From NCBI RefSeq assembly GCF_965263005.1, contig NZ_OZ253579.1:1731668-1795667 (forward strand): DNA of 64,000 nt, read 5' to 3'. Made by a program: the position numbers and the translations under genes. Positions 28,287 to 63,790 of the stretch are shown piece after piece. The DNA is from Candidatus Rariloculus sp. Lineage in GTDB: Bacteria > Pseudomonadota > Gammaproteobacteria > Steroidobacterales > Rariloculaceae. The notes beneath the pieces are model-generated. The model was given only the letters and a program-made list of their open reading frames with translations. It was not told the origin of the DNA and made no database searches. The stretch's first letter is position 1, and every line of letters begins with the position of its first letter.

Positions 28287-29486
28287 ATGTCCAGAATGAT
28301 TGCCGCGGCCTTTGCGGCCCTTGTGTTTGCAGGCTCCGCATCGGCCCACCATGGTTTCGGCCGCTTCGATCGAAGCCGTGAGATCCAGGTCGAGGGGACG
28401 GTGACGGGGATCGACTTCGTCAATCCGCACGCCTACGTGTATTTCGATGCCGTCGGGCCGGACGGCGAAGTCCTCGAGATGCGTTGCGAAATGCGCGCCG
28501 CGACCGTGCTGCGACGCTCCGGCTGGTCAGCCGAGATGTTCGTCGACGGCACGCACATCGCGGTCGACGGCCGCCCGCATCGCGACGACCCGGCCTCGTG
28601 CTACGTGGAGACGCTCGCGCTCGGCGACGATGAGATCCTCGAGCGCTACCAGCAACTTGGCGAAGCGGCAGCTCCGGCCGAGCGTGCCGACCGGCCCGCA
28701 CGTTTGCCGAGCGGCGTGCCCAACCTTGCCGGCGATTGGGCGCAGGAACAGTACCTCATGGCGCGCCCGCCCCGGGGCGGCGGCGCGCTCGTGCCGAAGA
28801 GCCTGATCGAGGCCGTCAACGCCGGCGAGATCGCACCCGAGGATGTTCCCGAATCGGACTGGGGCGCCCGTCCGGTGACCTATACAGAAGCCGGCATGGC
28901 AGCCGCCGTCGAACGCGCCAACGCGCCGCCAGGATCGGCGCCGCGCCTGCGCTGCGAGATCACGAGCATCCTGTTCGACTGGACCTTCGACGGTCCTATC
29001 AATCGCATCACTCAGAGCGAGGATACGATCACGATCGAGTATGGCCGCGGTCTGACCCGCACCGTCCATATGGACATGGAAGATCACCCGGCGACGATCG
29101 TGCCCAGTCGCGGCGGGCATTCGATCGGCCGCTGGGACGGCGACACGCTGGTCGTCGACACGGTCGGATTCGAGCCCGGCATCCTCGCGGGAATGGCGCC
29201 CATTGTATCGGCGACGACGATCGACGACGACGCGGCCGGAATCGAGCCCGCCACGTCCGCCGGACCTGTTACCCACAGCGGCGAGCTGCACGTCGTCGAA
29301 CGCTTCACGCTCGATCCGGAAACGATGGCGCTGAAGCGCGATTACGCCGCCGAGGATGCCCTGTATTTTGCCGACCCATATGTCGGCTCCGCCGTCGTGT
29401 TCCCGGCCGACGCACAGTTCGCGGTCGATCAATGCAAGGAGTTGGCCTACGAGTACATCACGCCCGCGGAGGGCGAGGGGCAATAG
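28287..29486 (+). CDS. secreted fusion protein: A|HH...NPH module + 'GxWxGDTLV' two-Cys module (family member P1)
   Basis: In ORF 28248..29486. GGGGAGA RBS precedes ATG 28287. Signal peptide MSRMIAAAFAALVFAGSASA|HHGFGRFD...VNPHAYVYFD. C-terminal part has HSIGRWDGDTLVVDTVGF...HSGELHVVERF...DQC. Confidence 0.8.
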   Translation: MSRMIAAAFAALVFAGSASAHHGFGRFDRSREIQVEGTVTGIDFVNPHAYVYFDAVGPDGEVLEMRCEMRAATVLRRSGWSAEMFVDGTHIAVDGRPHRDDPASCYVETLALGDDEILERYQQLGEAAAPAERADRPARLPSGVPNLAGDWAQEQYLMARPPRGGGALVPKSLIEAVNAGEIAPEDVPESDWGARPVTYTEAGMAAAVERANAPPGSAPRLRCEITSILFDWTFDGPINRITQSEDTITIEYGRGLTRTVHMDMEDHPATIVPSRGGHSIGRWDGDTLVVDTVGFEPGILAGMAPIVSATTIDDDAAGIEPATSAGPVTHSGELHVVERFTLDPETMALKRDYAAEDALYFADPYVGSAVVFPADAQFAVDQCKELAYEYITPAEGEGQ

Positions 29487-32071: not shown

Positions 32072-32474
32072 ATGAGCGGATTTCTGTCGCGGCGGGAGAT
32101 GCTCAAGCGCGCGGCTCGATGCCGTCGACGCGCATGCACGCGATACGGCCGGTCAGCCGTTCGCGGAACTCGCCGCAAACCAGCAGGACGCGGTGCTCGG
32201 TGACCTCGAACAGAACGTCGGCGACGGATTCGAGCCTGACGCCGCAACGTTCTTCGACATGGTCCTGCAGCACACGATAGAGGGAACGTTCTCTGACCCG
32301 CAGTACGGCGGCAATCGCGACTTCATCGGTTGGGAGATGCTCGGCTACCCGGGGCTGCGTCTCGCCGTCGGCCCGAACGAACAGACAATGGATGCGCGTC
32401 CCGAGATGACGCGGCTCTCCGCCTACGATCTGCCGATGTTCGATTCGCCCGACAGCGAGGGTGACTCGCCGTGA
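32072..32474 (+). pseudogene. gluconate 2-dehydrogenase subunit-3-family protein, frameshifted or internally deleted
   Basis: The Tat signal MSGFLSRREMLKRAA (ATG 32072) is in a different frame from the conserved C-terminal part ...FFDMVLQHTIEGTFSDPQYGGNRDFIGWEMLGYPG (ORF 32193..32474). Confidence 0.6.
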
Positions 32475-33055
32475 CCGTCACGCTTGCGGGCACGGATGTC
32501 GCCGTCATCGGCCTCGGGGGCGTCGGCGGCGTGGCCGTGCTGCCGCTCGCAGAAGCTGGAATGGACGTCGTCGGGCTCGAAGCGGGCACCTGGCGATCGG
32601 CGAGCGACTTCGCGCCGGACGAGTTGCGCAACAACTACCGCGGCTGGCCGCAGGCCGCGCAGAAGGCCAATCGCGAGATTCCCGTGCATCGGCCGAACGC
32701 GTCGGCGCCGGATTCGCCACGCGGCAGCGTCCATCCGATGATGAACGGCGTCGGCGGCACGACGCTGCATTACTGGGCGCAGAGCTGGCGGCTCAATCCC
32801 TGGGACTTCCGGGTCGTCAGCGAGACGACGCGCTGCTACGGGGCGGCACGCATTCCTGCCGGCTCTACCGTCGAGGACTGGCCGTTCGGCCTCGAGGAAC
32901 TCGAGCCGCACTACGACCGCGTCGAGCGCGAGGTCGGCGTTTCGGGGCAGGCCGGCAATGTCAACGGCGCCATCGACGAGCGCGGCAACGTCTCGGACTT
33001 GCCCGAAGGCCGGTTGAGGCGAACAACGCTTCGTCTGCCAACGCTGCAAGCCTGA
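32471..33055 (+). pseudogene. GMC-family flavoprotein oxidoreductase, N-terminal third only
   Basis: 194-aa ORF. FAD fold DVAVIGLGGVGGVAVLPLAEAGMDVVGLEAG. Family similarity ends near ...GNVNGAIDERGNV (~32990). Full-length homologues are ~550 aa. Confidence 0.65.
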
Positions 33056-33184
33056 TCGCCCCCACCGCTGTCCGTCAGTTGCACAAAGATTGCGTGCCAG
33101 TCACCGGCGCCATGCTGCAGGACGTACGGACGGAAAGGAATACGCTATGCTTACCGAGATCAGCTCGCAGCGAGGAGGCATCGC

Positions 33185-33589
33185 ATGCGTGTCGTAGGAA
33201 TCCTCTCGATTGTCGCTTCCTTCGGGTTTGCCGCGGCGCCATCGACTCTGGCGCATCATTCGTTCGCAGCGCAGTTCGACCCGACCAAGCCCGTCACCCT
33301 TGAAGGAACGGTTACCAAGGTCGAGTGGCGAAACCCCCATATCTGGGTATACCTGGACGTCACCGACGCCGATGGCGCTGTGACTTCCTGGGAATGTGAA
33401 GGCGGGGCGCCGAACGCACTCACAAGACGGGGATGGAGCAGCCAAACCTTGAAGCCCGGCTCCACGCTCGAGATTCATGGCTACCTCGCAAGAAACGGGA
33501 CCAATACCTGCAACGCTCGAACGTGGATCTATGAGGGTCGAACCGTGTTCGCTGGGGAAGCCAGCGACGGCGGCCCCTCGCCTGATTAG
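33185..33589 (+). CDS. small secreted A|HH...NPH module protein (DUF6152-like)
   Basis: 134-aa ORF. Signal peptide ...APSTLA|HHSFAAQFDPTKPVTLEGTVTKVEWRNPHIWVYLDV...RRGW...KPGSTLEIHG. Confidence 0.8.
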   Translation: MRVVGILSIVASFGFAAAPSTLAHHSFAAQFDPTKPVTLEGTVTKVEWRNPHIWVYLDVTDADGAVTSWECEGGAPNALTRRGWSSQTLKPGSTLEIHGYLARNGTNTCNARTWIYEGRTVFAGEASDGGPSPD

Positions 33590-33620: not shown

Positions 33621-34457
33621 ATGAGACACGCAAGTTTAGTCGTCACCAGCTCGGTCACGATGGCTGCGGCCTTGAACCTCTGGTTCCTCGCAGTGTCGCC
33701 GGCGTTCGCACAACGTGCCGTGTACGAGCGCAACGTTGTCCTTACGGAACAACCCGAGCCGGACGGCACGCCTGTTCCACGAACGGCTGACGGGCGCGCG
33801 GACCTCAGCGGAGTCTGGAACAAGGCGATTCACCAAAACACCGCTGCGCCCGTCGAACCGCTGCCTTTCACGCCGGACGGGCTGAAAGCGTTCAACGACG
33901 TGGCGAACATCATCGATCCCACGGCGCGCTGCATCCTTCCTGGCGTGCCGCGCGTCAACAACTCACCGTACCCGATGCAAATCATGCAGATGCCGGACCG
34001 GGTCGTCTTTGTCTATGAGTACATGCATAACTTCCGGGTGATCTATACGGACGGGCGTGGCCACCGTGAGAACTGGGAGGCTTCCCTGATGGGTGACTCG
34101 ATCGGCCGCTGGGATGGCGACACGCTCGTGATCGATACGGTAAACCTGACCGATCGAACACGTCTCGATGATCACGGCAACGTGCACAGCGACGCACTGC
34201 ACGTGATCGAGCGCTGGCGTCGCATCAGTGCGAACGAGCTGTGGTACGAAGCGACGATAGACGACCAGAAGTACTACACGGAGCCCTGGACAACCGGTTA
34301 CGTCATTCCTCTGGCCCCGCCGGATTGGGAGATCATGGAATACGCATGCACCGACAACAACAAGGACCTGTACGACGGCCACCTGCAGCCTGGCTCTCTC
34401 AGCGGATCGGGGCGGGATGGCACGGCGCTCGCTACGCCACCGATTTCGAGGGAGTGA
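33621..34457 (+). CDS. secreted 'GxWxGDTLV' two-Cys module protein (family member P2)
   Basis: In ORF 33477..34457. GGAGA RBS precedes ATG 33621. Signal peptide. ARCILPGVPR...FRVIYTDGRGH...DSIGRWDGDTLVIDTVNL...HSDALHVIERWRRI...EYACTDNN. Confidence 0.8.
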   Translation: MRHASLVVTSSVTMAAALNLWFLAVSPAFAQRAVYERNVVLTEQPEPDGTPVPRTADGRADLSGVWNKAIHQNTAAPVEPLPFTPDGLKAFNDVANIIDPTARCILPGVPRVNNSPYPMQIMQMPDRVVFVYEYMHNFRVIYTDGRGHRENWEASLMGDSIGRWDGDTLVIDTVNLTDRTRLDDHGNVHSDALHVIERWRRISANELWYEATIDDQKYYTEPWTTGYVIPLAPPDWEIMEYACTDNNKDLYDGHLQPGSLSGSGRDGTALATPPISRE

Positions 34458-34643: not shown

Positions 34644-34720
34644 CGGGGTGTAGCTCAGCCTGGTAGAGCACTGTCTTCGGGAGGCAGGGGCCGGAGGTTC
34701 AAATCCTCTCACCCCGACCA
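34644..34720 (+). tRNA. tRNA-Pro (anticodon CGG)
   Basis: 77 nt, folded by hand. Acceptor CGGGGTG/CACCCCG, D arm GCTC...GAGC, anticodon stem CTGTC/GGCAG with loop TTCGGGA (CGG), T arm GGAGG-TTCAAAT-CCTCT, encoded CCA. Close to E. coli proK. Confidence 0.93.
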
Positions 34721-34788
34721 ATCCAGACACGAGCGCACGCTCGTACGCGAATCCCTGAGCCGAGCGGCGAATCGGTTTTCGCGGCTCG

Positions 34789-35328
34789 CTATAGCTCCGC
34801 AGGCTCCACGATACTGAATCCGGCGACATCAACCGCCTGGCGCGAGACCGTGCCGAAGTAGCGGATGGCGCTGGCGCCGGCCACGGCGCCTGTCAATGCG
34901 CCGCTGACCATGGTCAGCCTCAGACTGGACGCGCCGGCCAGGTTGACGTGGGCATCGATGAAGACAAAGCCATCCAGCTCGATATCGCCGGCCCCGGCCA
35001 GCGACAGGTCGAGTTCGTCATAGCGACTGTCATTGCCGACTATTCGGGTCGCGCCGGCGACATCGATCAAGAGGCGCTCGCCTTCGAAGCCGGAGAGCGT
35101 CAGGTGGCTGCTGCCGGCCGCGTCCAGTTCCGCCAGCGCCGGCATGACGATTTCCGCGGAGAACTCGCTGCTCGACCGTCCGAAAAACGATCCCGGCTTC
35201 GCGCCGGTCAGGGTGAGCCGCTCGCCGCGCACGGATGCGTCGACGGATTCGACGCCATCGTCGGTAGAAAACAGGTCCACCTGCCAATCTTCACCTTGGG
35301 TTATGGTGACGGTCCACTGGCCTCCCAT
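34789..35328 (-). pseudogene. DUF2807 / head-GIN-domain protein lacking N-terminus
   Basis: 179-aa ORF. Repetitive beta-helix-like pattern (LTLSGFEG...IDVAGATRIVG...LSLAGAGDIELDG...VNLAGASSLRL). No signal peptide or N-terminal region. Abuts the GntR fragment in another frame. Confidence 0.5.
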
Positions 35329-35402
35329 TCGCCCTGCAGGATGCGGTCGCGGATCTGGTCCGCGATCTGCAGGTAAATGCTTCTGGGCTCGCTAAACTCC
35401 AT
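35301..35402 (-). pseudogene. GntR/YtrA-family regulator N-terminal ~25-aa fragment
   Basis: Manual translation from ATG 35402 gives MEFSEPRSIYLQIADQIRDRILQGEW..., the typical start of GntR wHTH regulators. It then runs into unrelated sequence and a stop. Confidence 0.45.
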
Positions 35403-35465
35403 CGCTGACCTGCGTCTCCCGAACTCTGAGCCAGGCGATCTTCCAGCACGCCATTGGCAGCAGGA

Positions 35466-35940
35466 TCACGAAGATCGTCTGGAGTGTCTCGCCCAACAAA
35501 GCCAGTCTCCGGTATAGACCAGGCCGTCAACTGCTTCGGGACGATGCCCGCTGACGGAAAAGCGCAGGTAGCCGCGCAGGTCAGACGCAGTCCGGTTCAG
35601 CAGCACGCGGCCCTCATGAACGATCACGATGCGATCCACAAGCGATTCCACATCCCTGACCTGGTGTGTCGAGACCACGATGGCCTGCTCTTCGTTGATC
35701 GCTTCGGCCACAAGGCGCCTGAAGATCCCCTTCGACGGGATGTCGAGGCCGTTGGTCGGCTCGTCCAGAAACATGAGCGAGGTGTTGCACGCCAGACCGA
35801 ATGCCAACAGGAACTTCTTCTGCTGGCCGTGCGAGAGTTGTGTCAATCTCCTGTCTTCGGGGATCTCGAACTCCTTGAGCTACCGTTGCATTCGGGTTTG
35901 ATCGAAATCCGGATAGAGAGGGAGCGCACGGCGACTTAGT
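35466..35940 (-). pseudogene. ABC transporter ATP-binding protein, C-terminal half with in-frame stop
   Basis: ORF 35466..35846 has the signature LSHGQQKK and Walker B LMFLDEPTNGLD. Upstream in frame: ...YPDFDQTRMQR*LKEFEIPEDRRLTQLSHG. The Walker A region is absent. Confidence 0.65.
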
Positions 35941-35987: not shown

Positions 35988-36803
35988 CTAGAGGAAGCTG
36001 TGCGGCCATATCATCGTGCGCCACATGTGGGCGACAGGCGAACCGTCAAATCCGAGGCCCTCGCGTGGTTGCCTGAAGTTTCGGCCGACGACATCTTCGA
36101 ACTGATCGATCGAAAGGTCTGTGACGTTTGGATCGAACGCATACAGGTCATTGAGCATGATCAAACGTGCCGTCATGTACCAGCGGTGGTTGCGTGCCTC
36201 GTCGTACTCAGCCTGTACCCAGGGTTCGACTTCATAGGCCTCGCCGAACCAGGCGCGATAGCTCGCGGGGTAGTCATAACCTACGGCTTCGTCTGCGAAA
36301 AAGCGCAAGGCCTGGTGTTTTTGCACGGCCCAGGCAACTTCTTCATCGACGTAAGGTGCGATGAGTTGAGCGGCATAGAACCCGTGGTCCATCCGGATGA
36401 ACGCCTCGACGGAAATGTCGTGAAGGAGGCAGGCCAGGATGACCTTCTCGTCCATGCCCTCCTGCATAGCCAGATTTGCGCTCTGCAACAGGTGGGCAGG
36501 ATTGGCCATCCGGTGCCGAAATATGTCTAGCAGCGTCGGTCTCTCCGGCATTCGGGGCAGTCGCGGATCATCCATTCCGGCCATGTATTTCGACGGCGGT
36601 GCTCCTCCCTGCGAGTTCGATCCAGGCGGCGCCATCGAACGAGGCTCATCCGGCTCACACAGGAATGGTTTCTCTATGTGTCGCGCCAGGCCGTCGATCA
36701 TGACTCCTTCGAACGCTTCCGCGCGTTGACTGAGCGTCATTTCGGCGGTGAAAGTGGCTGCTGCCGCCGCGGCAGTGCAGTTCATGAAGGTGCGCCGATC
36801 CAT
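35988..36803 (-). CDS. Tat-signal HD-domain protein (PhnZ/MIOX-like superfamily, tentative)
   Basis: 271-aa ORF. MDRRTFMNCTAAAAAA (twin-Arg). HLLQSANLAMQEGMDEKVILACLLHDIS (HD motif). 15 nt downstream of the TonB receptor gene. Confidence 0.65.
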   Translation of the reverse strand: MDRRTFMNCTAAAAAATFTAEMTLSQRAEAFEGVMIDGLARHIEKPFLCEPDEPRSMAPPGSNSQGGAPPSKYMAGMDDPRLPRMPERPTLLDIFRHRMANPAHLLQSANLAMQEGMDEKVILACLLHDISVEAFIRMDHGFYAAQLIAPYVDEEVAWAVQKHQALRFFADEAVGYDYPASYRAWFGEAYEVEPWVQAEYDEARNHRWYMTARLIMLNDLYAFDPNVTDLSIDQFEDVVGRNFRQPREGLGFDGSPVAHMWRTMIWPHSFL

Positions 36804-36818
36804 CGTGTAATCCAGGAG

Positions 36819-39382
36819 CTAGAAACGGTACCTGAATTCGACGCCGACCTGACGAGGCACGCCGACGTTCACCAGCGTGATCGCCGGCGGCGCGTTTCCC
36901 CTGGGGTTCAGCGACGCAATGCCGGTGAACACGTACGCCGGATGGTTATCGGGCTTGTATGGGAACACCGTGTTCGATGTGCCTCCAGCCCATGCCGCGC
37001 CACCAGTGATGTATTCCTCGTCGGCACAGTTGGTGCAGTACAACGATGCGTTCCAGGTGCCATCCGGCGGCGTGTAGCCGACGCGCAGGGTGAGCAGATC
37101 GTATTCCGGGATTCTAAGTGTCGTCGAATCCTGTCCGCTTGAGTTCTGCTCGTCTTTGTAGGCATAGTCGATCGATGCTCTGATGATCGCACCCGAGTTC
37201 AGGTCCCAGGTGTTGGATAGGCCGAGGTTGTAGCCGAGATCCGGGGCACGGCTGAAGTTGGAGTCGAACTCGACCCCCGACGTGAGATTCAGGATTTCAT
37301 CCCAATTGGCATCCAGCGTGCCGGCGCCGAGCTTGAACTGGAGCGAGTCGGTCAGAAGCGCCTGAAGCTCAAGCTCGACGCCCGAAATCTCGGCCGAGCC
37401 GACGTTGATCGTACAGCGCCTGGCGCACCGCGTGTCAGCGGTCACTGTAAGCTGCTTGTCTTCGTAGTCCATCTGAAAGTACGTGACGTTTGCGCGCAGG
37501 CGGCCGCTTGCAGACTCGATGCGCGTTCCAATCTCGTAGTTCCAGACTTCCTCGGGCTGAAACGGTGTATCGATATCGTCCGGCTGATCGTTCGTGCCAC
37601 CGGACTTGAAGCCCTTCGAGGCCGCGGCATACAGCATCACGATATCGGTAGGCTGCCATTCGAGCGCGACGCGCGGTGTCACCGACTCGAACGTATCCGT
37701 GCCGGAAAGTGTAGCGGCAGCGGCGGACGGGACGATGTTCTCGTTGGCATCGAGGAAACACGGATTCGTGGCTGTACAGCCGCCGTAAGTGTCACCATCC
37801 GGGTTAACGTACAGTACATTTCGACCCCCCCGTCGATCGATATCTCGATAGTTCGAGTTGTTGTCCGGGCCGTTAGGGTCTATTGCGTGGATTTCGAACA
37901 GTCGCCGATCGAGTTCGGCGTCGAAAACACCGAGGTTGTACGCCGCGTACGACTTGTCGTCTTCGGTCCAACGCGTGCCGAGCGTCAGCGTGAAATTCTC
38001 ACTGAACTGCCAGTCCACCTGAGCGAATATGCCGGTGCTATCGGTTTCCTCCTGTGCGTTTGTGAGATGTTCGAGTGCGCCCCACTGGAATCCGCCCGCC
38101 CATCGGTAATCCTTGTTCGACAATAGCCTCAGGCCAGGTTCTTCGACCGAATAGTAGAGCCCCGCGACCCAGTTGAGTCGGTCGCTTTCCGAGACGCCAT
38201 TGAGCTGAAACTCCTGCGACCAGAAGTCGCTGAAGTTGTTCGTGCCGCCATCGAAGAACGATTCGGCGTACATGCTTTCGTCCGACTCGCGTTGCTCAAG
38301 TGTGTCCATGTCGCGCCAACCGGTGATCGAGCGCAATGTCAGCCGGTCGGAAATGTCGTAGGAAATGTCGAGCGTGACACCGGTGCTCTCGGCCGTGGTA
38401 AAGCCGATAGGGCCGGTTCCTGCAACGTGGTACAGGCTGTCCGGGATCGACGGTGCGTAATGTTCGGGTGTGCCCGCCGGAAAGATCGTTTGATAGGCAG
38501 CCAGATTCGAGATGCCGCCAGTAAAGATTGGCGCCCCGGTGTCGCCCTCGATTTGGGGAGTCGCCGGATCATCCCAGCCGCCGTTGAAACCGAAGTAATC
38601 GATCAACTTCGATGCGCCGCCATTCGATTCCGACTCGCTGCGGTTGATGTTGATGTCGATCGTCAGGTCATCGGACGGCTGGAACCGGAATTGCGCAGAG
38701 AAGTAGTCCGTATCGTCGGCACCAAGCCCCGCGCCGTCGGACAGGCGCTCCAGATAACCGTCGCGTTCCAGATGCGAATAGGCGAAGCGCGCGGCGGCAT
38801 TGTCGCCAAGCGGCAGTTGATGGCTGCCTGAACGTTTGCCCGGTCGTAGTCGCCCAGACCGACCAACACGTCACCGGAGACACCGCCGCCGATGTCCGGC
38901 TTGACAGTCACGTAGCGGATCGCGCCACCGGTCGAGTTTTTGCCGAAGAGCGTTCCCTGCGGACCGCGCAGCACTTCGACTCGCTCGACGTCGAGGAGTC
39001 GCAGGAAGTTGGTGAACGGACGCCCGTAATACACGTCATCGATGTAGACACCGACGGCGGGATCGAGCACCGGACTGATGCGTGCCTCGTTGATGCCGCG
39101 TATCGAGAACTGGGCGCCCACGTTGGCACGGCCGGTGCCATCGCCGATGCTCACGTTCGGTACGAAATCGGCCATGGCCTGAGGATCGCTGATCCCGAGG
39201 CGATCTAGTGTGTCGGCCGACAACACCGTGATCGCGACCGGTACCGACTGCAGGTCTTCTTCTCGTCGCTGAGCGGTGACGAGGATTTCTTCGAGGACAC
39301 CCGCCTGTCCAAGCGCAAGCGGTGTGTAAAGAGGCACGGATACGGATGTCGCAATGGCAACGCTGAGCAGGCGCAGTTTCAT
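36819..39382 (-). pseudogene. TonB-dependent receptor with a single frameshift (or sequencing error) near 38815
   Basis: ORF 38663..39382 carries the signal peptide plus plug (EEILVTAQRREEDLQSVPVAITVL...LRGPQGTLFGKNSTGGAI). ORF 36819..38606 carries the barrel, ending ...VGVEFRYRF. After ...VQAAIN the family-like sequence LPLGDNAAARFAYSHLERDGYL continues in another frame. Confidence 0.85.
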
Positions 39383-39552
39383 AAGAGGCTCCCCACCGAA
39401 ACTGAAAGGTTTTCGATTCGATTCACGTGCCTACTAATAGCCAAACGAGGGATCGATCGCACGGAAAAAAGCTCTAATTGAAAGGAAATAAAGTGAAAAG
39501 TATCTGACTTGGGCAACAAGGAAGTGTAATAATATAGGGCGTTTCATTAGAG

Positions 39553-39567
39553 TTTTCTTGGAGAAAA
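39553..39567. promoter_or_regulatory. candidate LTTR box (T-N11-A dyad)
   Basis: TTTTCTtggAGAAAA, with perfect 6-bp arms. Lies in the AT-rich divergent spacer between the TonB receptor (39382) and the LysR gene (39614). Confidence 0.3.
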
Positions 39568-39613
39568 GATAAACGCGAGCGTACCGCGCCGCTGCGCTAT
39601 CGAGACTGTTTGG

Positions 39614-40915
39614 ATGACAGCAGAACACAGACCGGACTTGCCGGAAGCTTCTGAGAACGCGTTGAGTTTGCGGCACTTGTCGCGGGTTGTCTGTCTCGCG
39701 GAGTTTCACAACGTGGCCGAGGCTGCCGATCATCTGAGTTGTTCGCCGGCCGCCGTAACCAAATCCGTCAAGGAGATTGAAGGCATCCTCGGCGCCTCAC
39801 TGTTCGAACGCGTTGGCGGGGATTACCGAACGACGCTAGCGGGCGACATACTGAGCAGGCGGGCTCGTCTGGCTCGCGAGGCCTACCGACAGATCGACCG
39901 TAGTCTTGGCAATCCGGTTCGCCTCCCACTGCCGCCGATCAGCAACAAGCGCGGAACCGCGTTTCTCGCGGCCTTTGCCCATCGCAACCTGGACCAGGCC
40001 GCTCGCGAGATCAGGGTCACGATCAGCGCGATTTACGGCGCCATTTCAAACCTTGAGAAGTTCTTCTCGAGAGATCTTTTCGAGAGATCGAAGCACGGTG
40101 AACTCGTGCCGACGCCGTTCGCTCACGAGCTTGCGAAGGCGCTGAAGCTGGTCCGTGCTGAAGTCCGTTTTGCGGTCGAGGAGGTCGCTAGCCTGGCATT
40201 CGGTCCGCGCGGCAAGGTGCGGATCGGAGTCTTGCCCAGAGCGCGCGAGTATCTCTTGCCTCACGCCATCAACAAGCTCATTTCCGATTACCCGGAAGTC
40301 AACGTTCGTGTGCTGGATGCGCCGGGGCCGAATCTATTGCGCGCCGTGCTGTGCGGCGATCTTGATTTCATAGTCGGACCATTCAAGCCGAAGTCAAAGG
40401 AATCCGGTCTGGCGATGGCTCCGCTGGTGGTCGATCACTTCATCGCCATTGCACGACAGACCCATCCACTGGCGAATGCGGTTCGGCCAAACCTCGCTGA
40501 GGCCATCGCCAACTATGGATGGGTGGTCGGCGTTCCGCGCAGCATCGGCAGGCAGATTTTCCGGGAAATCCTCGCCGATCACGGGCTCAATGAGCCGCAA
40601 CAGCTAATAGAATCCAACTCCTTCTCACTGATAAGAGGCTTGTTGCTCGAGAAGGACTGGATCGCGTTGTCAACTGTTGCCGAGTTCTTCAACGCACCGG
40701 AATTCGGACAGCTCACGACACTGGATCTGCATTTATCACTCGGTTCGCAAGCCGATGCGGACCTGCCCATTTCGGTCCTGAAACGAGCCAATACGACGTT
40801 ACCTCCCGCGGCTCAGGTCACACTCGAATATGTCCATGCAGTTGCTGGTGAGATCAGGGCCGATCTCGAACGAGCGCGAACGCGGATGTTCACGCGGCTT
40901 GAGAGCGTCAAGTAG
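39614..40915 (+). CDS. LysR-type regulator with two tandem N-terminal wHTH domains
   Basis: 433-aa ORF. HTH-1 LRHLSRVVCLAEFHNVAEAADHLSCSPAAVTKSVKEIEGILGASLFER. HTH-2 FLAAFAHRNLDQAAREIRVTISAIYGAISNLEKFFSRDLFER. A single LysR substrate-binding domain follows (KVRIGVLPRAREYLLPHAI...). Confidence 0.8.
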   Translation: MTAEHRPDLPEASENALSLRHLSRVVCLAEFHNVAEAADHLSCSPAAVTKSVKEIEGILGASLFERVGGDYRTTLAGDILSRRARLAREAYRQIDRSLGNPVRLPLPPISNKRGTAFLAAFAHRNLDQAAREIRVTISAIYGAISNLEKFFSRDLFERSKHGELVPTPFAHELAKALKLVRAEVRFAVEEVASLAFGPRGKVRIGVLPRAREYLLPHAINKLISDYPEVNVRVLDAPGPNLLRAVLCGDLDFIVGPFKPKSKESGLAMAPLVVDHFIAIARQTHPLANAVRPNLAEAIANYGWVVGVPRSIGRQIFREILADHGLNEPQQLIESNSFSLIRGLLLEKDWIALSTVAEFFNAPEFGQLTTLDLHLSLGSQADADLPISVLKRANTTLPPAAQVTLEYVHAVAGEIRADLERARTRMFTRLESVK

Positions 40916-40939
40916 GGGTCACGCACGGAGTAAGCGACT

Positions 40940-41938
40940 ATGAATAACAACCGTGTCTCGTTTTTGTTGTGTGCCTGCGCTTTGCTGAGCGCACGGGCTG
41001 CAGTTGCTCACCACTCACATGCCAACATCGACCCTGAAGATATTCAGCGTCACACGGGCGTCGTGATGGAGTTCGGCTGGACCATGCCCCACGTTTACAT
41101 AAAGGCGATGGCGCCGAATCCGAACGGTGAACTCGTCGAGTACAGCATCGAGTTACTGCACCCGCCGGGTATGGCACAACGTGGATGGTCGCGCGACAGC
41201 TTCAAGCCGGGCGATCGCATTACTTGGGAAGGACCGGCCGATCGTGACCCGAATCGCTATTACTCCGGCCTTCGGTGGGCGGAGACCGGCAGCGGCGAGC
41301 GCTTGTCCATGGAGAGGTCGGAGTTGCCGACGGAGCCGTCCACGGACTTCAGCGGTATCTGGGTTCGGTCCCTCGGTGGTGCGCGCCCGGATTATCAGCC
41401 GCCGGCGGACTGGCCATACACTGATTTCGCGATGCCGCTCATCGCGAATTTCAACGAAGATCAGAATCCTCAGCTCGATTGTCAGAACCCCGGACCGCCG
41501 AAGTCGACGCTGCTGCCTTACCCGATAAGGATCAGTCGACCGGACGATCAGACGATCGTGATGGATTACGAGCTGCGCGAAGACCCGCGGATCATTACTT
41601 TTGACGCTACACGGGAGCCCGGCGACCCATCAAAGCTCGGGTACTCCGTTGCCAGGCTCGACGGCACCGCGCTCGTGATCGAAACGACCAATTTCGCTGC
41701 CGATCGTTGGGGCATTCAGACCGGCGTCGATTCCAGTGAACAAAAACATCTCGTTGAACGGCTGACGTTCGAGCCGGACGGCCTTGCGATCAACATTGAG
41801 ATGACCGTTACAGATCCGGTGTATCTGGAGGGGCCGGTGGTCGTCAATCGCAGATATGTGAAGGTGCCGGATCGGGAGCTGATCGTGGTCGAGTGTACGC
41901 GGGAGAGCGCTCGCCTGTTTCTCGAAGGTGGGCTCTAG
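40940..41938 (+). CDS. secreted fusion protein: A|HH module + two-Cys module (family member P3)
   Basis: 332-aa ORF. Signal ...SARAAVA|HHSHANID...WTMPHVYIKA...QRGWSRDSFKPGD. C-terminal part LDCQNPGPP...GYSVARLDGTALVIETTNF...KHLVERLTF...VVECT. Confidence 0.8.
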   Translation: MNNNRVSFLLCACALLSARAAVAHHSHANIDPEDIQRHTGVVMEFGWTMPHVYIKAMAPNPNGELVEYSIELLHPPGMAQRGWSRDSFKPGDRITWEGPADRDPNRYYSGLRWAETGSGERLSMERSELPTEPSTDFSGIWVRSLGGARPDYQPPADWPYTDFAMPLIANFNEDQNPQLDCQNPGPPKSTLLPYPIRISRPDDQTIVMDYELREDPRIITFDATREPGDPSKLGYSVARLDGTALVIETTNFAADRWGIQTGVDSSEQKHLVERLTFEPDGLAINIEMTVTDPVYLEGPVVVNRRYVKVPDRELIVVECTRESARLFLEGGL

Positions 41939-41969
41939 GGCCACAGCGACTCAGAGGAGACTTAGCAAC

Positions 41970-43211
41970 ATGCGAACTGTACTTCTTCGCTTTCAAGCGG
42001 CAGTTGCCGTACTGGCAGGAGCGTTCGTCGCGCCCGGTGTCACGCTGGCGCACCATTCGGCTATCGCATTCGACGAGACTCAATTCGTCGACGTGACCGG
42101 CACTGTCACCACGTTCATCTGGCGAAATCCTCACCTGATCGTGCATGTCGAAACCGAAGGGTCCGATGGCGAACCGGAGGTCTGGCCGATCGAAGGTCAG
42201 AGTATCGCGATGCTGATTCGAGCGGGATTCGACCGCGACGTGGTGCACGAAGGCGATCGAATTACGGTCAAGGTGTATCCGATGAAGAATGGGGAGCCGG
42301 GCGGGCTGCTGCAGGGTCTCATTTCTGCCGACGGAACCGCGTATTCGATGGACAGTGCAGATGCGCCGGAAAGGCGGCGCCAACCCGTGCCGTCTCTCGT
42401 TGCTTTTATTCCACCCCCGGAAAGGGAAACATGGCAAATGCGAGAGGAGAAGACGCGGCCGCCGAATCTGCCAATCGTCTCTGATGGCACGGGCACCGGA
42501 GACTCCGAGTCCGCGGGCCTGATGTCGGGAGCGCTCGACCCCGACAACCTCGCCAGGGAACGACCCGTGCCGCCGTTCGACCTGACCGGTGTCTGGCAGT
42601 TTCGCGGCGAGGATGAATGGCGCGCGAACTACGGGTCATACGAATTCAAGCCCATGCCCGAACTGACCCCGAAAGGCCAGGCATTCTACGACGCCTATAT
42701 GGAGGCCGCAGCGCAGGGGGATCGCTACTTCGACCCGACCGCGGAGTGCTACCCGGCCGGGATGCCGCGACTCATGACTCGCTATGGCTCCCTCATGATG
42801 CTGCAGTATCCGACTGTGATCTTCATGGTTTCGCGACTCAGTAACGAGTATCGCGTGATCTTTCTCGACGGTCGCGAGCGCCTGCCCGGTAGCCGACTGG
42901 ATCGCAACTGGAGCGGCGAGTCGCTGGGATACTGGGAAGGTGACACACTCGTCATCGAAACAGAAGGGTTTACGGACGAGAATCATCTGATGCAGGCTGG
43001 TGTCATCACGGGCACCCAGCTCAAGATCACCGAGCGATACCGATCGATCAACGATGGAAATACGCTCGTGATGGACTTTACCTTCGAGGATCCCGAGCAT
43101 TGGGTTGGGGAGTGGAACCACATTAAGTTTCGGGATCGCGTCCTGCGTTCCGACATAAAGGAAGCGAACTGCATACCGGCCGACAATCTCGCGCTACCGG
43201 GCCTGGGCTGA
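41970..43211 (+). CDS. secreted fusion protein: A|HH module + two-Cys module (family member P4)
   Basis: In ORF 41928..43211. GAGGAGA RBS precedes ATG 41970. ...PGVTLA|HHSAIAFDETQFVDVTGTVTTFIWRNPHLIVHVE. C-terminal part AECYPAGMPR...YRVIFLDGRE...ESLGYWEGDTLVIETEGF...ITERYRSI...EANCIP. Confidence 0.8.
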   Translation: MRTVLLRFQAAVAVLAGAFVAPGVTLAHHSAIAFDETQFVDVTGTVTTFIWRNPHLIVHVETEGSDGEPEVWPIEGQSIAMLIRAGFDRDVVHEGDRITVKVYPMKNGEPGGLLQGLISADGTAYSMDSADAPERRRQPVPSLVAFIPPPERETWQMREEKTRPPNLPIVSDGTGTGDSESAGLMSGALDPDNLARERPVPPFDLTGVWQFRGEDEWRANYGSYEFKPMPELTPKGQAFYDAYMEAAAQGDRYFDPTAECYPAGMPRLMTRYGSLMMLQYPTVIFMVSRLSNEYRVIFLDGRERLPGSRLDRNWSGESLGYWEGDTLVIETEGFTDENHLMQAGVITGTQLKITERYRSINDGNTLVMDFTFEDPEHWVGEWNHIKFRDRVLRSDIKEANCIPADNLALPGLG

Positions 43212-47626: not shown

Positions 47627-48266
47627 CGCGCTTGCACCGTTTGGTGCTCGGGAAGCCGTTGCAACGCCCGCCGGTATCGAAGGCGCGCACGGTAACGGAG
47701 ATCCTGCGGCCTCGGTAGCGCTTGAGGCGGGGCAGCTCATGCGTCCATGCGAGGTTGGTCGCGTAGGGCATGATGAAGACATCGCCATCGACGGCGTCGA
47801 GGTCGATGTATCGTCCTTTTCCGCGATAAGGGCGCAGCCTGAAGATCCGCTCCTCGCCAAACGACAACGTCACTATCGGCGCGCCCGCAATGAGGTTGCG
47901 CCGGCTGTCTCGATGTGCGCTGATGTAGTGGCCGAGCGCACCGTCGTACCAGTTGAGCAACAGGCCGTTGAGCCTCGTGTGGACCGTCGCCTTGCACCAT
48001 CCGAGCAACGGTGCGAGCACGCCGGGAATCGGCAGTGCCGGGCTTTCGGATCCGCTGAACACGTAGCTCCTGCCGTAGGCCTGTTGCCAGCGCGGCGTCT
48101 TGACGAGGCGATGGTGCACGCGGATTTCGTGATAGCTCGTCGGGTGCAGCGACCAGATCGCTTCGAACCGGTCGTCGTCGAGAATCAACGAGTCGGGCAG
48201 GCGGCCCAGATAAAGATGATGCCGCTCGTCGAGGTCGATGCGCCTGAAGCCGCCGGGCTTGCTCAA
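47595..48266 (-). CDS. AlkB-like Fe(II)/2-oxoglutarate dioxygenase
   Basis: 223-aa ORF. LLNWYDGALGHYISAHRDS (HxD), WTHELP (His), RISVTVRAF (RxSxTxR). The start overlaps the stop of the upstream ankyrin gene by 4 nt. Confidence 0.8.
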   Translation of the reverse strand: MSKPGGFRRIDLDERHHLYLGRLPDSLILDDDRFEAIWSLHPTSYHEIRVHHRLVKTPRWQQAYGRSYVFSGSESPALPIPGVLAPLLGWCKATVHTRLNGLLLNWYDGALGHYISAHRDSRRNLIAGAPIVTLSFGEERIFRLRPYRGKGRYIDLDAVDGDVFIMPYATNLAWTHELPRLKRYRGRRISVTVRAFDTGGRCNGFPSTKRCKRVSASLHRRGS

Positions 48267-50061: not shown

Positions 50062-50095
50062 TAGCCCGCGATTCACGCCTGGCGACGCTCACGGC

Positions 50096-51442: not shown

Positions 51443-51444
51443 CT

Positions 51445-54871: not shown

Positions 54872-54964
54872 TCCGCGTGACTGCGTCGGGTGTTCCAGCG
54901 GATCAGGTCTGCGGCGCGCGACGTGAACCCCGGTCGGCGCCGCGGACGCGCGTCCGTGATGCAT

Positions 54965-56083
54965 CTACTCCCCCGCGTTGATGTCGAAGAAGTCGATCGA
55001 TTCCGGGTCTTCGATGTACGTTTCCTCGTGAATCGGGGTGACGCGCTCGGGAATCGGATCGCCATTGGCTATCGCCTCGGCGACACGCTGCTCGAAGTCG
55101 CGCTCGCCCGTGAGCGAGTTGCGCACCGCACCGTTGCCTTCATGACACGAGTATTCGTAGATCCGGTAGCCGGGCTGAGTCGTGTACATCATCCGGACCG
55201 TAAGGGGCGCCGTGTAGGTGACCGGATCCTCGATGGTCGCGACGTACTCGATCATTTCCGGATCGACGCGCGTGAACCGCTCCATGATCGTCATCGCTTC
55301 GCTGTGACGCGTGCCGTTGCCGTTGCCGCCGATGCTGGTCATGTCGGTGAGGTTCCGCGTCTCGACAACGAGCGTGTCGCCGTCCCAGTAACCGCGGGAA
55401 TTGCCGAGGTACTGCCGGACGCCGTCGTCCATGTGCGGCCGCTCGCCGAGCTTGATGACGCGCGTGTCGTGAATCATCTCGTAGGAGATTGCGACAGAGT
55501 CCACGGTCTGAACTACTCTGAGCCCGTTGCCGTAAACGACGGGGAACTGCGAGCCGAGTATCCCGCGCGTGATGCACCGGTCGTAGAGCGTGAAGTCCTC
55601 CAGACTGTCGAATGGACCTGGCCCGAAGCTGCCGCGGTCGCTCGGTGCGGCGCGCGCGAGTCCCGCCTCGGTCATCGCGGGCGTCCGCCCGTCCGACGGG
55701 TCGATGACGAGCGACGTGTACCCGAACGTCCGCGTGCCAGCCTCACCACGGCGCGAGAAGCCCTGCTCGTTGACGTGGAAATTCCGCGTTTCCTCGTCCG
55801 CCGCGGCGCGCTCGGCGAACTCTTCCGGTGTGAGTTTCTGACGGTCGCCGAATTGCGCGGGGCGTTCGCGCGGCACGCTGCGCATGTCGTCCGTGCTCCA
55901 GGTCCCTTCGAGGCTCGGGTGACCCCATGACGTCCGTGGTACTTGCCAGGCCGGATCGACGATGGCCGCAGCCGACGCCTCGGCCGGAACCTGGCCGCTG
56001 CCGACTTGCGCGTTTACGGCGCTCGCAGCGAGCGCTGCGGCGATCACGGCGGATATATACGGTGTTCGTGGTTCCTTGCGCAT
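54965..56083 (-). CDS. secreted 'GxWxGDTLV' two-Cys module protein (family member P5)
   Basis: 372-aa ORF with signal peptide. LYDRCITRG...NSRGYWDGDTLVVETRNL...HSEAMTIMERFTRVD...YEYSCHEGN. Confidence 0.8.
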   Translation of the reverse strand: MRKEPRTPYISAVIAAALAASAVNAQVGSGQVPAEASAAAIVDPAWQVPRTSWGHPSLEGTWSTDDMRSVPRERPAQFGDRQKLTPEEFAERAAADEETRNFHVNEQGFSRRGEAGTRTFGYTSLVIDPSDGRTPAMTEAGLARAAPSDRGSFGPGPFDSLEDFTLYDRCITRGILGSQFPVVYGNGLRVVQTVDSVAISYEMIHDTRVIKLGERPHMDDGVRQYLGNSRGYWDGDTLVVETRNLTDMTSIGGNGNGTRHSEAMTIMERFTRVDPEMIEYVATIEDPVTYTAPLTVRMMYTTQPGYRIYEYSCHEGNGAVRNSLTGERDFEQRVAEAIANGDPIPERVTPIHEETYIEDPESIDFFDINAGE

Positions 56084-60055: not shown

Positions 60056-60454
60056 TTGGGGCGCCCCGTGTACTTGAGACTCCTCCGAGCTCGCGCAAGG
60101 ATCGGCGCGCTCACGTTGGCCGCGGCGAGCTGGCCCGCATACGCTCATCACGGCGGCGCCGTCGAGTGGCAACAGAGCGTGCACGGCCCGGTCACAGGCT
60201 TTGCGACTGATTTCGCGTTCCGCTTTCCGCACGTCACTGTCTTCATCGATGTCAGCACTGACGGCGCCACCGAGAACTGGGCCGTCACGACGCGTTGGAC
60301 GCCGACGATCCTGCGACAGCACGGTTGGACTCGCAACTCGATCAAACCCGGCGATACGGTAACCGCGACTTACGCGCCGCACGTGACGAATTCGACGGTT
60401 GTGCAGATGCGCACGATCGAGGTGAACGGTGACGAGCTACCGCTGCAGTTCTGA
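60056..60454 (+). CDS. small secreted A|HH...PH module protein (divergent DUF6152-like)
   Basis: 132-aa ORF (TTG 60056, alternative GTG 60068). ...AAASWPAYA|HHGGAVEWQ...FRFPHVTVFIDV...QHGWTRNSIKPGDTV. A TATAAT lies at 60027-60032. Confidence 0.7.
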   Translation: MGRPVYLRLLRARARIGALTLAAASWPAYAHHGGAVEWQQSVHGPVTGFATDFAFRFPHVTVFIDVSTDGATENWAVTTRWTPTILRQHGWTRNSIKPGDTVTATYAPHVTNSTVVQMRTIEVNGDELPLQF

Positions 60455-61289
60455 CGGGTCCGCTCGACGGCGCGTGCGGACGTGCTTGTCTCGCGTTTGT
60501 ATCGTGAGCTTCGTCGCTGTGTTGTTCGTATTCGCCATTCCCCTTTCGTCGCCGGGCCAGCAGTCTCGAGACGCCTTCGACCCGCGCGATCTCGCCGGAC
60601 ACTGGGATCGCAGCACGCCGATCGAGTCTTTCGCCCCTACGCCTGGTGCAACGCGCGAGGCAAACGCCGCCGAAACCGCGCAAGCACCGTTCACGGTGCA
60701 GGGCAGGGCGCTGTTTGAGGCCAACATGCCGGGCTACGGACCGCGGCGCCAGATGCGACGGAACGACCCGCTCGGACGCTGCGAACCGATGGGCCTGCCG
60801 CGCCTGCTCAATGTCGAGATCGTCGCCCCGCACTCAACGTTCGAGATCGTGCAAACACCGGGGAGAATTCTGCAGTTCTTCGAGTACCGTCACGACTGGC
60901 GCGAGATCTGGATGGACGGCCGCTCGCTTCCGGCGCTCGAGGACACCTATCCGAAGTGGAATGGCTACTCGGTCGGCCGCTGGGAGGGCGACACCCTCGT
61001 CGTCGAGTCGATCGGATTCGACGATCGAAGCTGGCTCGACAAGCTCGGCTATCCGCATTCGGAGGCGATGCGCCTCGAGGAGCGGTATCGGCGTATCGAC
61101 GCCGATACGCTCGAGCTCACGATGACGAGCATCGATCCCGTCGTCTACAGCGAACCTTTCCGGAGCGACCGGAAACTGTTTCACTTGAATCGCGACAAGG
61201 CCGCTGGCTGGGACGAGCAGATTTACTGTATCCCTGCCGAAGAGATATCCTACCAGGACATCGTCGGAACAGGTAACACGATTGAGTGA
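60429..61289 (+). CDS. secreted 'GxWxGDTLV' two-Cys module protein (family member P6)
   Basis: 286-aa ORF. GAGG lies 7 nt before GTG 60429, which overlaps the upstream gene by 26 nt (alternative GTG 60474). LGRCEPMGLPR...WREIWMDGRS...YSVGRWEGDTLVVESIGF...HSEAMRLEERYRRID...QIYCIPAEE. Confidence 0.8.
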   Translation: MTSYRCSSDGSARRRVRTCLSRVCIVSFVAVLFVFAIPLSSPGQQSRDAFDPRDLAGHWDRSTPIESFAPTPGATREANAAETAQAPFTVQGRALFEANMPGYGPRRQMRRNDPLGRCEPMGLPRLLNVEIVAPHSTFEIVQTPGRILQFFEYRHDWREIWMDGRSLPALEDTYPKWNGYSVGRWEGDTLVVESIGFDDRSWLDKLGYPHSEAMRLEERYRRIDADTLELTMTSIDPVVYSEPFRSDRKLFHLNRDKAAGWDEQIYCIPAEEISYQDIVGTGNTIE

Positions 61290-62677: not shown

Positions 62678-63790
62678 ATGAACTTAAAGAGATGGAATCG
62701 TTTGATTGTCGCGTCGTGGGTGAGTCTCGCCGTAGCCTTGAGTCTGGCGGCGCAACCCGCATCCGCGCAGTCGCAGCGAGGGCGCACGACAGCGGAGTGC
62801 GTTTCGCTTGCCGAGCAGTATCCCGATCTCGGCACGACGCAGAGCGTGTCGGCGAACCGGGAGTTCACGACGGTCTGGGGCTCGTTTGAACTACCGGGCG
62901 GGCCTTGCGGCTATGCATCGGCCGAGGAGCATTACAGCGTGCTGCTCGAGGGCGCGAAGAGCCGCGGCGGCCCGACGGAGCACACGATCGCGAGCCTGCC
63001 CGACTGGAGCGGGCACTGGGGCACTGAGAACGGAACGGGCGAGCTTGCGATCGTCGGCCGGCACTCGACGCCCGAAGGCATGGCGGTGCGGCTTACGCCC
63101 GACGCACGCGAGGTCTTTATGCACGACTACCGCATGTGGCGCGAGGACCACGCCATCGACCCGATCTCGTTTTGCCTGCCGCCGAACTTTCCGCGCTGGT
63201 TCACGGAGTACGGCTTCAGGGAGCAGTTTCTGGCGCCCGACAAGACCGTGCTCGGCAGCGAGATGGTTAACCAGTTCAGGCGCGTATTCACCGACGGGCG
63301 GCCGCATCCGTCCGACGAATGGCTCACGAACGAATGGCTCGGCTACTCGATCGGCTTCTGGGATGAGGACGTGCTGACGATCTGGACCAAGGGCATCAAG
63401 GAAGGCGTTCTGCAGCGCAACATGCCTCGCCAGACGAACCAGATGGAAGTCATCGAGCGCTGGCGCAGGGTCGATCCCGTCGCGGCCGGTGTCGATATCA
63501 CGCCGGACACGTTGGGCTCAGGGTACATTCCCAACGAACGCCTGGAAATCGAGGTCACGATGTACGACCCGACCTTCGTCGAGCCGTGGCATACCGTCGT
63601 TGCGTATTACAAGGAAGACGACCGCACTGCGGAGGCGAAGGAGCGGATCTGGCCGCACCAATGGGACTGCGTCGAGGGTTCGCAGTGGTTCATCACCGAT
63701 GAAGGCATCGTCAGTCAGTACGCACCGGGCGAGAAGCCTGACGTTACGAACCCCGATTTCTGGTTCGACGAGGAATACGTGCATCAGTAG
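62678..63790 (+). CDS. secreted two-Cys module protein, divergent (family member P7)
   Basis: 370-aa ORF with signal peptide. SFCLPPNFPR...FRRVFTDGRPH...GYSIGFWDEDVLTIWTKG...QMEVIERWRRVD...QWDCVEG. Confidence 0.7.
   Translation: MNLKRWNRLIVASWVSLAVALSLAAQPASAQSQRGRTTAECVSLAEQYPDLGTTQSVSANREFTTVWGSFELPGGPCGYASAEEHYSVLLEGAKSRGGPTEHTIASLPDWSGHWGTENGTGELAIVGRHSTPEGMAVRLTPDAREVFMHDYRMWREDHAIDPISFCLPPNFPRWFTEYGFREQFLAPDKTVLGSEMVNQFRRVFTDGRPHPSDEWLTNEWLGYSIGFWDEDVLTIWTKGIKEGVLQRNMPRQTNQMEVIERWRRVDPVAAGVDITPDTLGSGYIPNERLEIEVTMYDPTFVEPWHTVVAYYKEDDRTAEAKERIWPHQWDCVEGSQWFITDEGIVSQYAPGEKPDVTNPDFWFDEEYVHQ

Follow-up and report, generated by a model that had tools for sequence, protein, structure and literature searches.

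DUF6152 proteins share an N-terminal His-His and a distal Pro-His, a candidate metal site on a predicted OB-fold

A 64,000-nucleotide stretch of the Candidatus Rariloculus sp. genome (contig NZ_OZ253579.1, positions 1,731,668 to 1,795,667; hereafter the window) encodes five small secreted modules, each predicted to begin with His-His after signal-peptide cleavage and to carry a Pro-His (PH) dipeptide further on. The focal gene, at 33185–33589, encodes one of them, module 2, as a stand-alone protein. All five are members of Pfam PF19649 (DUF6152), a family of unknown function, and pass its gathering threshold of 27 bits with 53–106 bits (E = 4e-14 to 8e-31). Among relatives there is almost no variation at His1, His2 or the PH-His, the complete set appears to be tied to a free N-terminus, the predicted fold is an OB-fold (oligonucleotide/oligosaccharide-binding fold) and a two-cysteine partner module usually lies next door. 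Our preferred reading, to which we give close to, but short of, an even chance, is that DUF6152 is a periplasmic OB-fold domain in which cleavage creates an N-terminal-His metal site with a redox or ligand-processing role.

Two histidines at the predicted mature N-terminus and a third further on

A six-frame scan of the window for Ala-His-His followed by PH returned exactly five open reading frames (ORFs), two stand-alone and three forming the N-terminal domains of longer proteins. Their junctions (SASA/HH, STLA/HH, AAVA/HH, VTLA/HH and PAYA/HH) are precisely those listed in the preliminary description, which had read the modules as possible copper 'histidine brace' proteins. The five paralogues share only 23–35% pairwise identity; nine columns are invariant among them, and five of these are Ala(−1), His1, His2 and the Pro and His of PH. 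The PH-His is mature position 28 or 29. Its invariance was thus borne out, while the spacing given with it (28–33 residues) was slightly loose, the true distance being 27–28 residues past His1. Because all five modules exceed the PF19649 threshold and the motif persists in 150 family representatives, the five-module pattern cannot be put down to chance.

A profile of the five modules matched 15,681 clusters at 50% identity (E ≤ 1e-3) among 1.84 billion representatives. Conservation was assessed in the best 150 of these, with one representative per 50%-identity cluster. HH followed 24–25 residues on by PH, preceded by Asn, Met or Ser, was present in 148 of 149 complete representatives; one has HQ, and one further sequence is truncated. 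The top columns are Pro28 and His29 (99.3%), His1 and Gly60 (98.7%), and His2, Gly18, Glu49 and Gly69 (98%), followed by Gly41, Asn27 (93%), Trp61 and Asp9 (89%); the five most conserved columns thus include His1, His2, Pro28 and His29. At about 98–99%, both histidines named in the preliminary description are therefore conserved across homologues. A hidden Markov model search of all retrieved sequences found the His-His-His triad in 542 of 558 domains, and 26 of 28 paralogues chosen without the motif pattern contained it, the other two being fragments. The earlier two-histidine brace reading was correct for His1 and the PH-His and overlooked His2, which is equally invariant; as predicted from these columns, the DUF6152 signature is a three-His plus amine site and not a simple two-His brace.

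Ala occupies position −1 in 140 of 149 representatives, and Ala, Val, Leu, Thr or Ser is found at −3. By visual and hydropathy inspection, a classical Sec signal peptide (basic n-region, hydrophobic h-region, c-region) ends directly at HH in the five modules and in all 146 relatives with intact N-termini, placing His as predicted mature residue 1 in agreement with the preliminary description. The junction holds even in gene calls that start too far upstream. An initial automated criterion had flagged 51 sequences as lacking a proper signal peptide, but its c-region rule (≤9 residues from the most hydrophobic window) was too strict, and inspection showed the signal peptides to be present. For comparison, only 2.6% of proteins that have a signal peptide cleaved off begin with His (PMC12537917).

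Domain order also follows the N-terminus. All 143 fused proteins, including 14 diverse representatives and the three window fusions (about 30% mutual identity), run from DUF6152 to partner, and in each of eight tandem DUF6152 proteins the internal copy lacks the full triad, having lost HH or replaced the PH-His by Arg or Asn. Four of these (P0164, P0181, P0192 and P0226) keep an internal HHSY with the PH-His changed to Arg (three) or Asn (one). The internal copies cut both ways: the full triad is tied to the N-terminal position, yet HH(S)Y is kept where there is no free amine. On the signal-peptide junction, the fixed fusion order, the loss of the internal triad and the covariation of residues 3 and 25 described below, the complete site appears to depend on a free N-terminus.

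These data bear on the proposal that HH serves in processing or sorting or as a purely structural cap, that the PH-His has a structural part in its loop, and that the two share no functional site. We consider this very improbable. A Pro-His in a tight loop beside invariant glycines would suit it, as would the near-invariant Phe4, Phe8 and Asp9, an indication that the N-terminal segment is packed against the barrel. However, at about 99% across Acidobacteriota and Gammaproteobacteria and at ≤50% identity, the three histidines are better conserved than most core residues, and the loss of one part or the other from internal copies speaks for a functional constraint linked to the N-terminus and not to folding. 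We also know of no sorting system that uses HH at +1.

A further pair of residues marks a subfamily. Cys48 and Cys86 of mature module 2 (WECEGG...NTCNAR; codons 33326–33328 and 33440–33442) have an equivalent pair in module 1 and are among the most strongly covarying pairs in DUF6152. They probably form a disulfide, which fits a periplasmic location.

A predicted OB-fold and its barrel partner

AlphaFold2 modelling of mature module 2 with a 125-sequence alignment gave a mean predicted local distance difference test (pLDDT) score of 87.5 and a predicted template-modelling score (pTM) of 0.80. The model comprises a long bent strand 1 (residues 8–25, with the bend at Gly18), an Arg-Asn-Pro-His loop, strands 30–37 and 43–49, a helix at 53–58, and strands 71–79 and 85–93, a predicted order of elements that is canonical for an OB-fold. 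In agreement, the best Foldseek matches in the PDB were single-stranded-DNA-binding protein (SSB), PriB and the anticodon-binding N-domain of lysyl-tRNA synthetase (LysRS) (E about 1e-3, template-modelling (TM) score 0.5–0.56), and no lytic polysaccharide monooxygenase (LPMO), CopC, cupredoxin or CusF was among the top 50. The pLDDT fell below 50 for residues 1–3 only, a modelled disorder such as would be expected of an apo metal-binding tail.

Covariation was analyzed by two mean-field direct-coupling analysis (DCA) runs. The first (effective number of sequences, Meff, 270) was dominated by subfamily signatures, yielded top pairs other than those of the second and was judged unreliable. The second, reweighted at 62%, recovered Cys48–Cys86 and the ladder between strands 2 and 3 (30–50, 31–47 and 35–43), which places Glu49 beside the start of strand 2, next to His29. 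Only the signal between residues 3 and 25 was used, cautiously; couplings among invariant columns (1–29, 2–29 and 28–69) were discarded as artefacts. Residue 25 lies four before the PH-His, and the pair is Ser-Trp in three window copies and Gly-Phe in two, with the minority state present in several clades. It ranks 14–23 in DCA and has an odds ratio of 4 (Fisher p = 0.0016, 145 non-redundant sequences). This is weak evidence for a packing of the HHS segment on the PH loop and the end of strand 1, which would place HH near that loop.

The two-Cys partner module of the preliminary description proved to be real, barrel-shaped in the model and strongly linked to DUF6152. One family takes in the stand-alone partner gene downstream of module 2, the C-terminal regions of all three fused proteins and another three genes of the window (Table 1). 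Its conserved features are D-x-x-G-x-W, Cys104 (100%), Glu133, Arg139, G-x-S, a G-D-x-L-V-V-x-T strand, Glu197-Arg198, Asp215-Pro and Cys243 (98%); it has no conserved His, and the two invariant Cys probably form a disulfide. No relative of the partner was found in Pfam, NCBIfam or the PDB. For the DUF6152 module likewise, NCBIfam held no matching model, and sequence and profile searches of the PDB with either module gave no meaningful relative, only HisF-like chance matches (E ≥ 0.04).

In a sample of 80 genomic loci containing 100 DUF6152 ORFs, the partner adjoined or was fused to 62: immediately downstream of 41, immediately upstream of 19 and fused to 2. The AlphaFold2 model of mature fused protein 3 (41009–41935), which has 119 fused homologues, reached a pLDDT of 93.1 and a pTM of 0.88 and indicates a single rigid two-domain unit. 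Given this model and the linkage in 62 of 100 ORFs, DUF6152 and the partner are taken to form one functional unit. The C-terminal part of the model is a barrel of about 8–10 strands with weak similarity to the avidin family (E 0.06–0.09, TM score 0.42–0.54). Its role may lie in substrate handling or redox, as had been proposed.

The barrel invites an explanation in which the three histidines are not a transition-metal site but serve acid-base chemistry or ligand binding, act as axial ligands of a haem or tetrapyrrole held in the barrel, bind an anionic ligand or form a pH-sensitive latch that joins the OB domain to the barrel. Haem, biliverdin, biotin or lipids are the usual ligands of calycin- and avidin-like barrels, the partner lacks a conserved His of its own, and TonB-dependent receptors, cytochromes and YceI occur in the gene context; in addition, the N-terminal residues are flexible in the models and HHSY persists in internal tandem copies with no free amine. 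None of these functions needs His at residue 1, yet His1 directly follows the signal peptide in all 146 intact N-termini, and DUF6152 is the first domain in all 143 fusions. An N-terminal His, rare as it is (2.6%), was metal-chelating in every conserved case tested (PMC12537917). We regard a non-metal role as quite unlikely.

A candidate metal site and its relation to known systems

In a histidine brace, an N-terminal His chelates copper through its amine and N-pi, and another His does so through N-tau; known carriers are LPMOs, the particulate methane and ammonia monooxygenases (pMMO/pAMO), CopC, PmoF1 and X325/Bim1, with YcnI as a mono-His variant, and all have signal peptides (PMC10952591). 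DUF6152 shares with this class (LPMOs AA9–AA17, PmoB, CopC/PmoF1 and X325/Bim1) an extracytoplasmic location, a predicted cleavage-exposed His1 and an invariant distal His (99%). It differs in its predicted OB-fold, where the brace families have an Ig-like, FnIII-like or cupredoxin-like sandwich, in a third invariant His at position 2, in an N-terminus that is flexible in models, in its obligate barrel partner and in the lack of any sequence relationship and of a polysaccharide-active or copper-resistance context. Membership of the LPMO, X325, CopC or PmoB families was rejected on the OB-fold model, on a Pfam scan that returned PF19649 alone besides a sub-threshold DUF4131 match, and on the lack of a PDB sequence or profile match. 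On this evidence the modules are not relatives of these proteins, although DUF6152 may still work like them.

A recent search for conserved His residues after signal peptides (Franco Cairo et al. 2025) found that all four families tested bound metal: DUF4198, which has TonB-receptor neighbours, binds Ni (facial 3N), DUF6702 binds Ni over Cu, and Ang-1 and Ang-2 bind Cu; all are beta-sandwiches, of diverse folds unlike that of LPMOs, and none had convincing enzymatic activity (PMC12537917). DUF6152 resembles them as a bacterial family recognized by a conserved His after the signal peptide and further conserved ligands, and it resembles DUF4198 in its TonB-receptor neighbours. The differences are its OB-fold, the combination of HH with PH, the dedicated partner domain and the conservation of His1 (about 99% versus 65–79% in DUF6702 and DUF4198). 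Membership of any of the four was rejected, as the Pfam scan returned only PF19649 above threshold, and DUF6152 is absent from that paper and its supplements (PMC12537917). Literature searches for DUF6152, and for 'histidine brace' combined with 'OB-fold', found no paper in the library covered. What would appear to be new is the combination: His1 joined by a further invariant histidine, His2, a fold that had not been connected with N-terminal-His sites, and an uncharacterized partner.

Three further systems offer partial parallels. The periplasmic Cu(I)/Ag(I) chaperones CusF and SilF, tied to the OB-fold in the literature, are like DUF6152 small periplasmic OB-fold proteins. A CusF-like site was rejected, since no Met is conserved among the top DUF6152 columns, no CusF Pfam match was obtained and CusF was absent from the top 50 Foldseek matches; CusF binds Cu(I) through His/Met/Met (plus Trp) on the barrel and has no N-terminal His. 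In tissue inhibitors of metalloproteinases (TIMPs), the N-terminal domain is an OB-fold in which the residue-1 alpha-amine chelates the catalytic Zn of the protein it binds, and so illustrates how an N-terminal segment can reach into a partner domain. TIMPs, however, have Cys1 and are disulfide-rich, eukaryotic and inhibitory, and the DUF6152 partner has no conserved His/Cys metal site beyond the two probable-disulfide Cys. ZinT/YodA is a periplasmic metal binder with a calycin-like barrel whose mature N-terminus is rich in His (HGHHSH); it is a single-domain, Zur-regulated protein with its main Zn site inside the barrel, and no homology of DUF6152 or the partner to it was detected in Pfam and PDB searches.

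From the motif, its conservation and these comparisons we infer a metal-binding site, its likely metal, geometry and function. Signal-peptidase cleavage would free the alpha-amine of His1 and thereby create a mononuclear metal site on the OB-fold. His1 is predicted to contribute both its amine and its imidazole, His2 its imidazole, and the Asn-Pro-His loop between strands 1 and 2 its His (His29), with Glu49, Asp9 and Asn27 probably in a second shell. Cu(II)/Cu(I) would be chemically the likeliest metal, because the N-terminal His chelate and the Xaa-His motif, both established to favour Cu(II), overlap in 'HH'; Ni or Zn is possible. Ni is preferred by the N-terminal-His families DUF4198 and DUF6702 (PMC12537917), and the DUF4198 precedent indicates that geometry can invert a preference for Cu to one for Ni. 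DUF6152 would work docked to the barrel, which may be avidin/calycin-like, whether fused to it or encoded as an adjacent gene pair, and the barrel, with its conserved Glu, Arg, Asp and Ser, would probably hold a small ligand.

The gene context was assessed in the window and in a census of 147 neighbours. Recurrent neighbours are a GMC oxidoreductase with its small subunit, YceI, PQQ dehydrogenases, GSDH, a cytochrome b561 with a metallo-beta-lactamase, molybdenum-cofactor dehydrogenases and multihaem cytochromes. A TonB receptor accompanies two consecutive fused genes (about 340 and about 405 residues) in L087 (7215–12373), in L090 (5455–10264) and in the window (36819–43211). It is intact in the first two, divergent in L087 and co-directional in L090, where overlapping coding regions suggest one operon; L089 (8001–10250) has both fused genes with no TonB receptor.

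This arrangement lends weight to an explanation in which DUF6152 is a non-catalytic shuttle or sequestering protein that takes Ni, Cu, Zn or Co from the TonB receptor and hands it on, the barrel merely docking or stabilizing. The tight succession of receptor and fused genes in L090 and their proximity in L087 and the window suit such a role, as does a PepSY_TM gene divergent from module 5; a similar function has been proposed for DUF4198, DUF6702, CopC, YcnI and ZinT. Furthermore, Ni-binding DUF4198 has TonB neighbours, real enzymatic activity was seen in none of the four new families with an N-terminal His (PMC12537917), and most bacterial brace derivatives appear to be transport proteins (PMC10952591). 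On the other hand, five DUF6152 and seven partner genes within 36 kb, and many paralogues per genome, would be unusual for metal homeostasis. The nearby regulators are of the LysR type and not Fur, Zur, NikR or CueR, the census contained no metal transporter or chaperone genes, the TonB receptors reached no metal-specific subfamily cut-off and had no TonB-copper match, and the obligate partner has conserved polar, pocket-like residues. On balance we judge the shuttle unlikely, while keeping it as a serious competitor.

The paralogue expansion, the LysR rather than metal-responsive regulators, the polar barrel residues and the TonB and periplasmic redox neighbours are the reasons for which we favour a redox or ligand-processing centre in the periplasm, downstream of TonB-dependent import, over a copper-homeostasis chaperone; the redox or ligand-processing step itself is put forward only as a conjecture. 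Several observations weigh against the metal-site reading as a whole. Drawn from the best-scoring 150 among 15,681 clusters, the conservation statistics favour motif-bearing members. With residues 1–3 below a pLDDT of 50, the site is not pre-organized in the model, in canonical OB topology the full length of strand 1 separates its start from the L12 loop, and the proximity of HH to PH is argued from one covarying pair and noisy DCA. The four internal tandem copies that retain HHSY with neither free amine nor PH-His imply that HH has some role independent of both. Apart from the partner, the neighbourhood is heterogeneous, its commonest Pfam family accounting for only 6 of 147 neighbours. Finally, the neighbours examined in the window and in the census include no copper- or metal-homeostasis gene (in the census no Cop, Cus, Sco or PCuAC) and no metal-sensing regulator, so the copper element of the preliminary description finds no echo in nearby genes.

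A bolder version of the metal-site reading, which we rate as a long shot, is that DUF6152 and the barrel make up a widespread, hitherto unrecognized two-domain copper enzyme of the periplasm, whether an oxidase, an oxygenase or a peroxygenase. No brace-type centre on an OB-fold would have been described before it, and it would act on small or hydrophobic substrates held in the barrel after TonB uptake and draw electrons from GMC/PQQ dehydrogenases and cytochromes. The electron donors of fungal LPMOs are GMC (AA3) and PQQ/GSDH-like (AA12) dehydrogenases, and genes of these GMC, PQQ and GSDH types also recur near DUF6152. Were it true, soil Acidobacteriota and sediment Woeseiaceae would possess a bacterial counterpart of the LPMO–AA3/AA12 partnership directed at non-polysaccharide substrates.

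N-terminal-His metal centres drive very hard oxidations (LPMOs and pMMO) and several metal-trafficking systems, and each new fold has widened that chemistry. In DUF6152 the mature N-terminus is more strictly conserved than in the recently validated families and lies on another predicted fold. The family is large (about 15,700 clusters at 50% identity), has no literature and no solved structure, and is concentrated in genomes of Acidobacteriota (Vicinamibacterales, Bryobacterales and Terriglobia) and in metagenome-assembled genomes of Gammaproteobacteria, with source names that include Woeseiaceae and Pseudohongiellaceae. It is abundant in soil Acidobacteriota and marine-sediment Gammaproteobacteria. 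If the site binds metal, these dominant agents of organic-matter turnover would have a new metalloprotein system in their periplasm.

Features of the window

The coordinates of the DUF6152 and partner genes and of the adjoining receptor and regulator are collected in Table 1.

Table 1 DUF6152 modules, partner genes and adjoining features of the window.
Feature	Coordinates	Strand	Basis and remarks
Fused DUF6152-partner 1, SASA/HH...NPHAYV	28287..29486	+	Start codon approximate, ORF opens 28248; PF19649 E 2.6e-19
DUF6152 module 2 (focal gene), stand-alone, 134 aa	33185..33589	+	ORF and sequence; PF19649 E 8e-31
Module 2 junction, STLA/HH...NPHIWV	33185–33589	+	Six-frame scan
Module 2 signal peptide, first 23 residues, ends STLA	33185–33253	+	Sequence
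Module 2 predicted mature N-terminus HHSF (from 33254), His24 and His25 codons	33254–33259	+	Sequence
Module 2 NPH motif, PH-His52 codon	33338–33340	+	Sequence
Partner 2, 278 aa, own signal peptide (..SPAFA/Q), Cys104 and Cys243	33621..34457	+	ORF; 31 nt 3' of module 2 gene
TonB-dependent receptor split in two ORFs (plug 38663–39382, barrel 36819–38606)	36819..39382	-	Divergent from LysR gene and fused 3/4
LysR-family regulator	39614..40915	+	Neighbour annotation; immediately 5' of fused 3/4
Fused DUF6152-partner 3, 332 aa, AAVA/HH...MPHVYI	40940..41938	+	Six-frame scan, PF19649, AlphaFold2 of mature form
Fused DUF6152-partner 4, 413 aa, VTLA/HH...NPHLIV	41970..43211	+	Six-frame scan, PF19649
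Partner-only gene, no adjoining DUF6152	54965..56083	-	ORF, family alignment; directly 5' of metallo-beta-lactamase-fold gene (53897–54964)
DUF6152 module 5, stand-alone, PAYA/HH...FPHVTV	60056..60454	+	PF19649 E 3.9e-14
Partner beside module 5	60429..61289	+	ORF, family alignment; start codon uncertain, ORF overlaps end of DUF6152 gene
Partner-only gene	62678..63790	+	ORF, family alignment

The focal ORF is preceded by a GAGGAGG (AGGAGG-type) ribosome-binding site 7–8 nt upstream, and the gene pair of module 2 and partner 2 is kept in L081 and L083. Compared with L081, a metagenome contig of 86–88% identity, the window carries a clean deletion of about 1,975 bp within 32113–33185 (breakpoint 32993). 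It cut the GMC oxidoreductase to 194 residues (32471–33055), truncated the Gluconate_2-dh3 small-subunit gene at its 5' end and removed the YceI gene that stands ahead of DUF6152 in L081 and L082, but it spared both the DUF6152-partner pair and the intergenic region upstream of that pair. Right after partner 2, the 34644–35846 region holds a tRNA-Pro(CGG), then a DUF2807 piece (34789–35328) and an ABC/AAA_21 C-terminal fragment (35466–35846). In L081 the matching tRNA-Pro is followed by DUF6088/AbiEii and several integrases, and the region is a variable tRNA-associated island site.

The split of the TonB receptor in the window probably reflects a frameshift, a pseudogene or a sequencing error. 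Near module 5, the PepSY_TM membrane protein (58660–59937, minus strand) is divergent from the module, its partner and an MFS transporter (61397–62632); PepSY_TM proteins often accompany TonB-dependent metal or siderophore uptake. The pair of cytochrome b561 and metallo-beta-lactamase genes recurs near fused genes in L088 and L090 and is related, below cut-off, to hydrolases of the 'quinoprotein relay system'.

At 48263–53985 (minus strand), a DUF1552 (HXXSHH) gene and a Planctomycete-type DUF1592/1588/1587/1585/1595 cytochrome-like gene pair adjoin an ankyrin-repeat gene; L085 has comparable PSCyt/DUF1501 genes close to a DUF6152 pair. Adjoining the split TonB receptor, 35988–36803 (minus strand) encodes a 271-residue protein with a twin-arginine-like N-terminus and a sub-threshold HD-domain match, which shows a distant likeness to a phosphonate-degradation HD oxygenase model.

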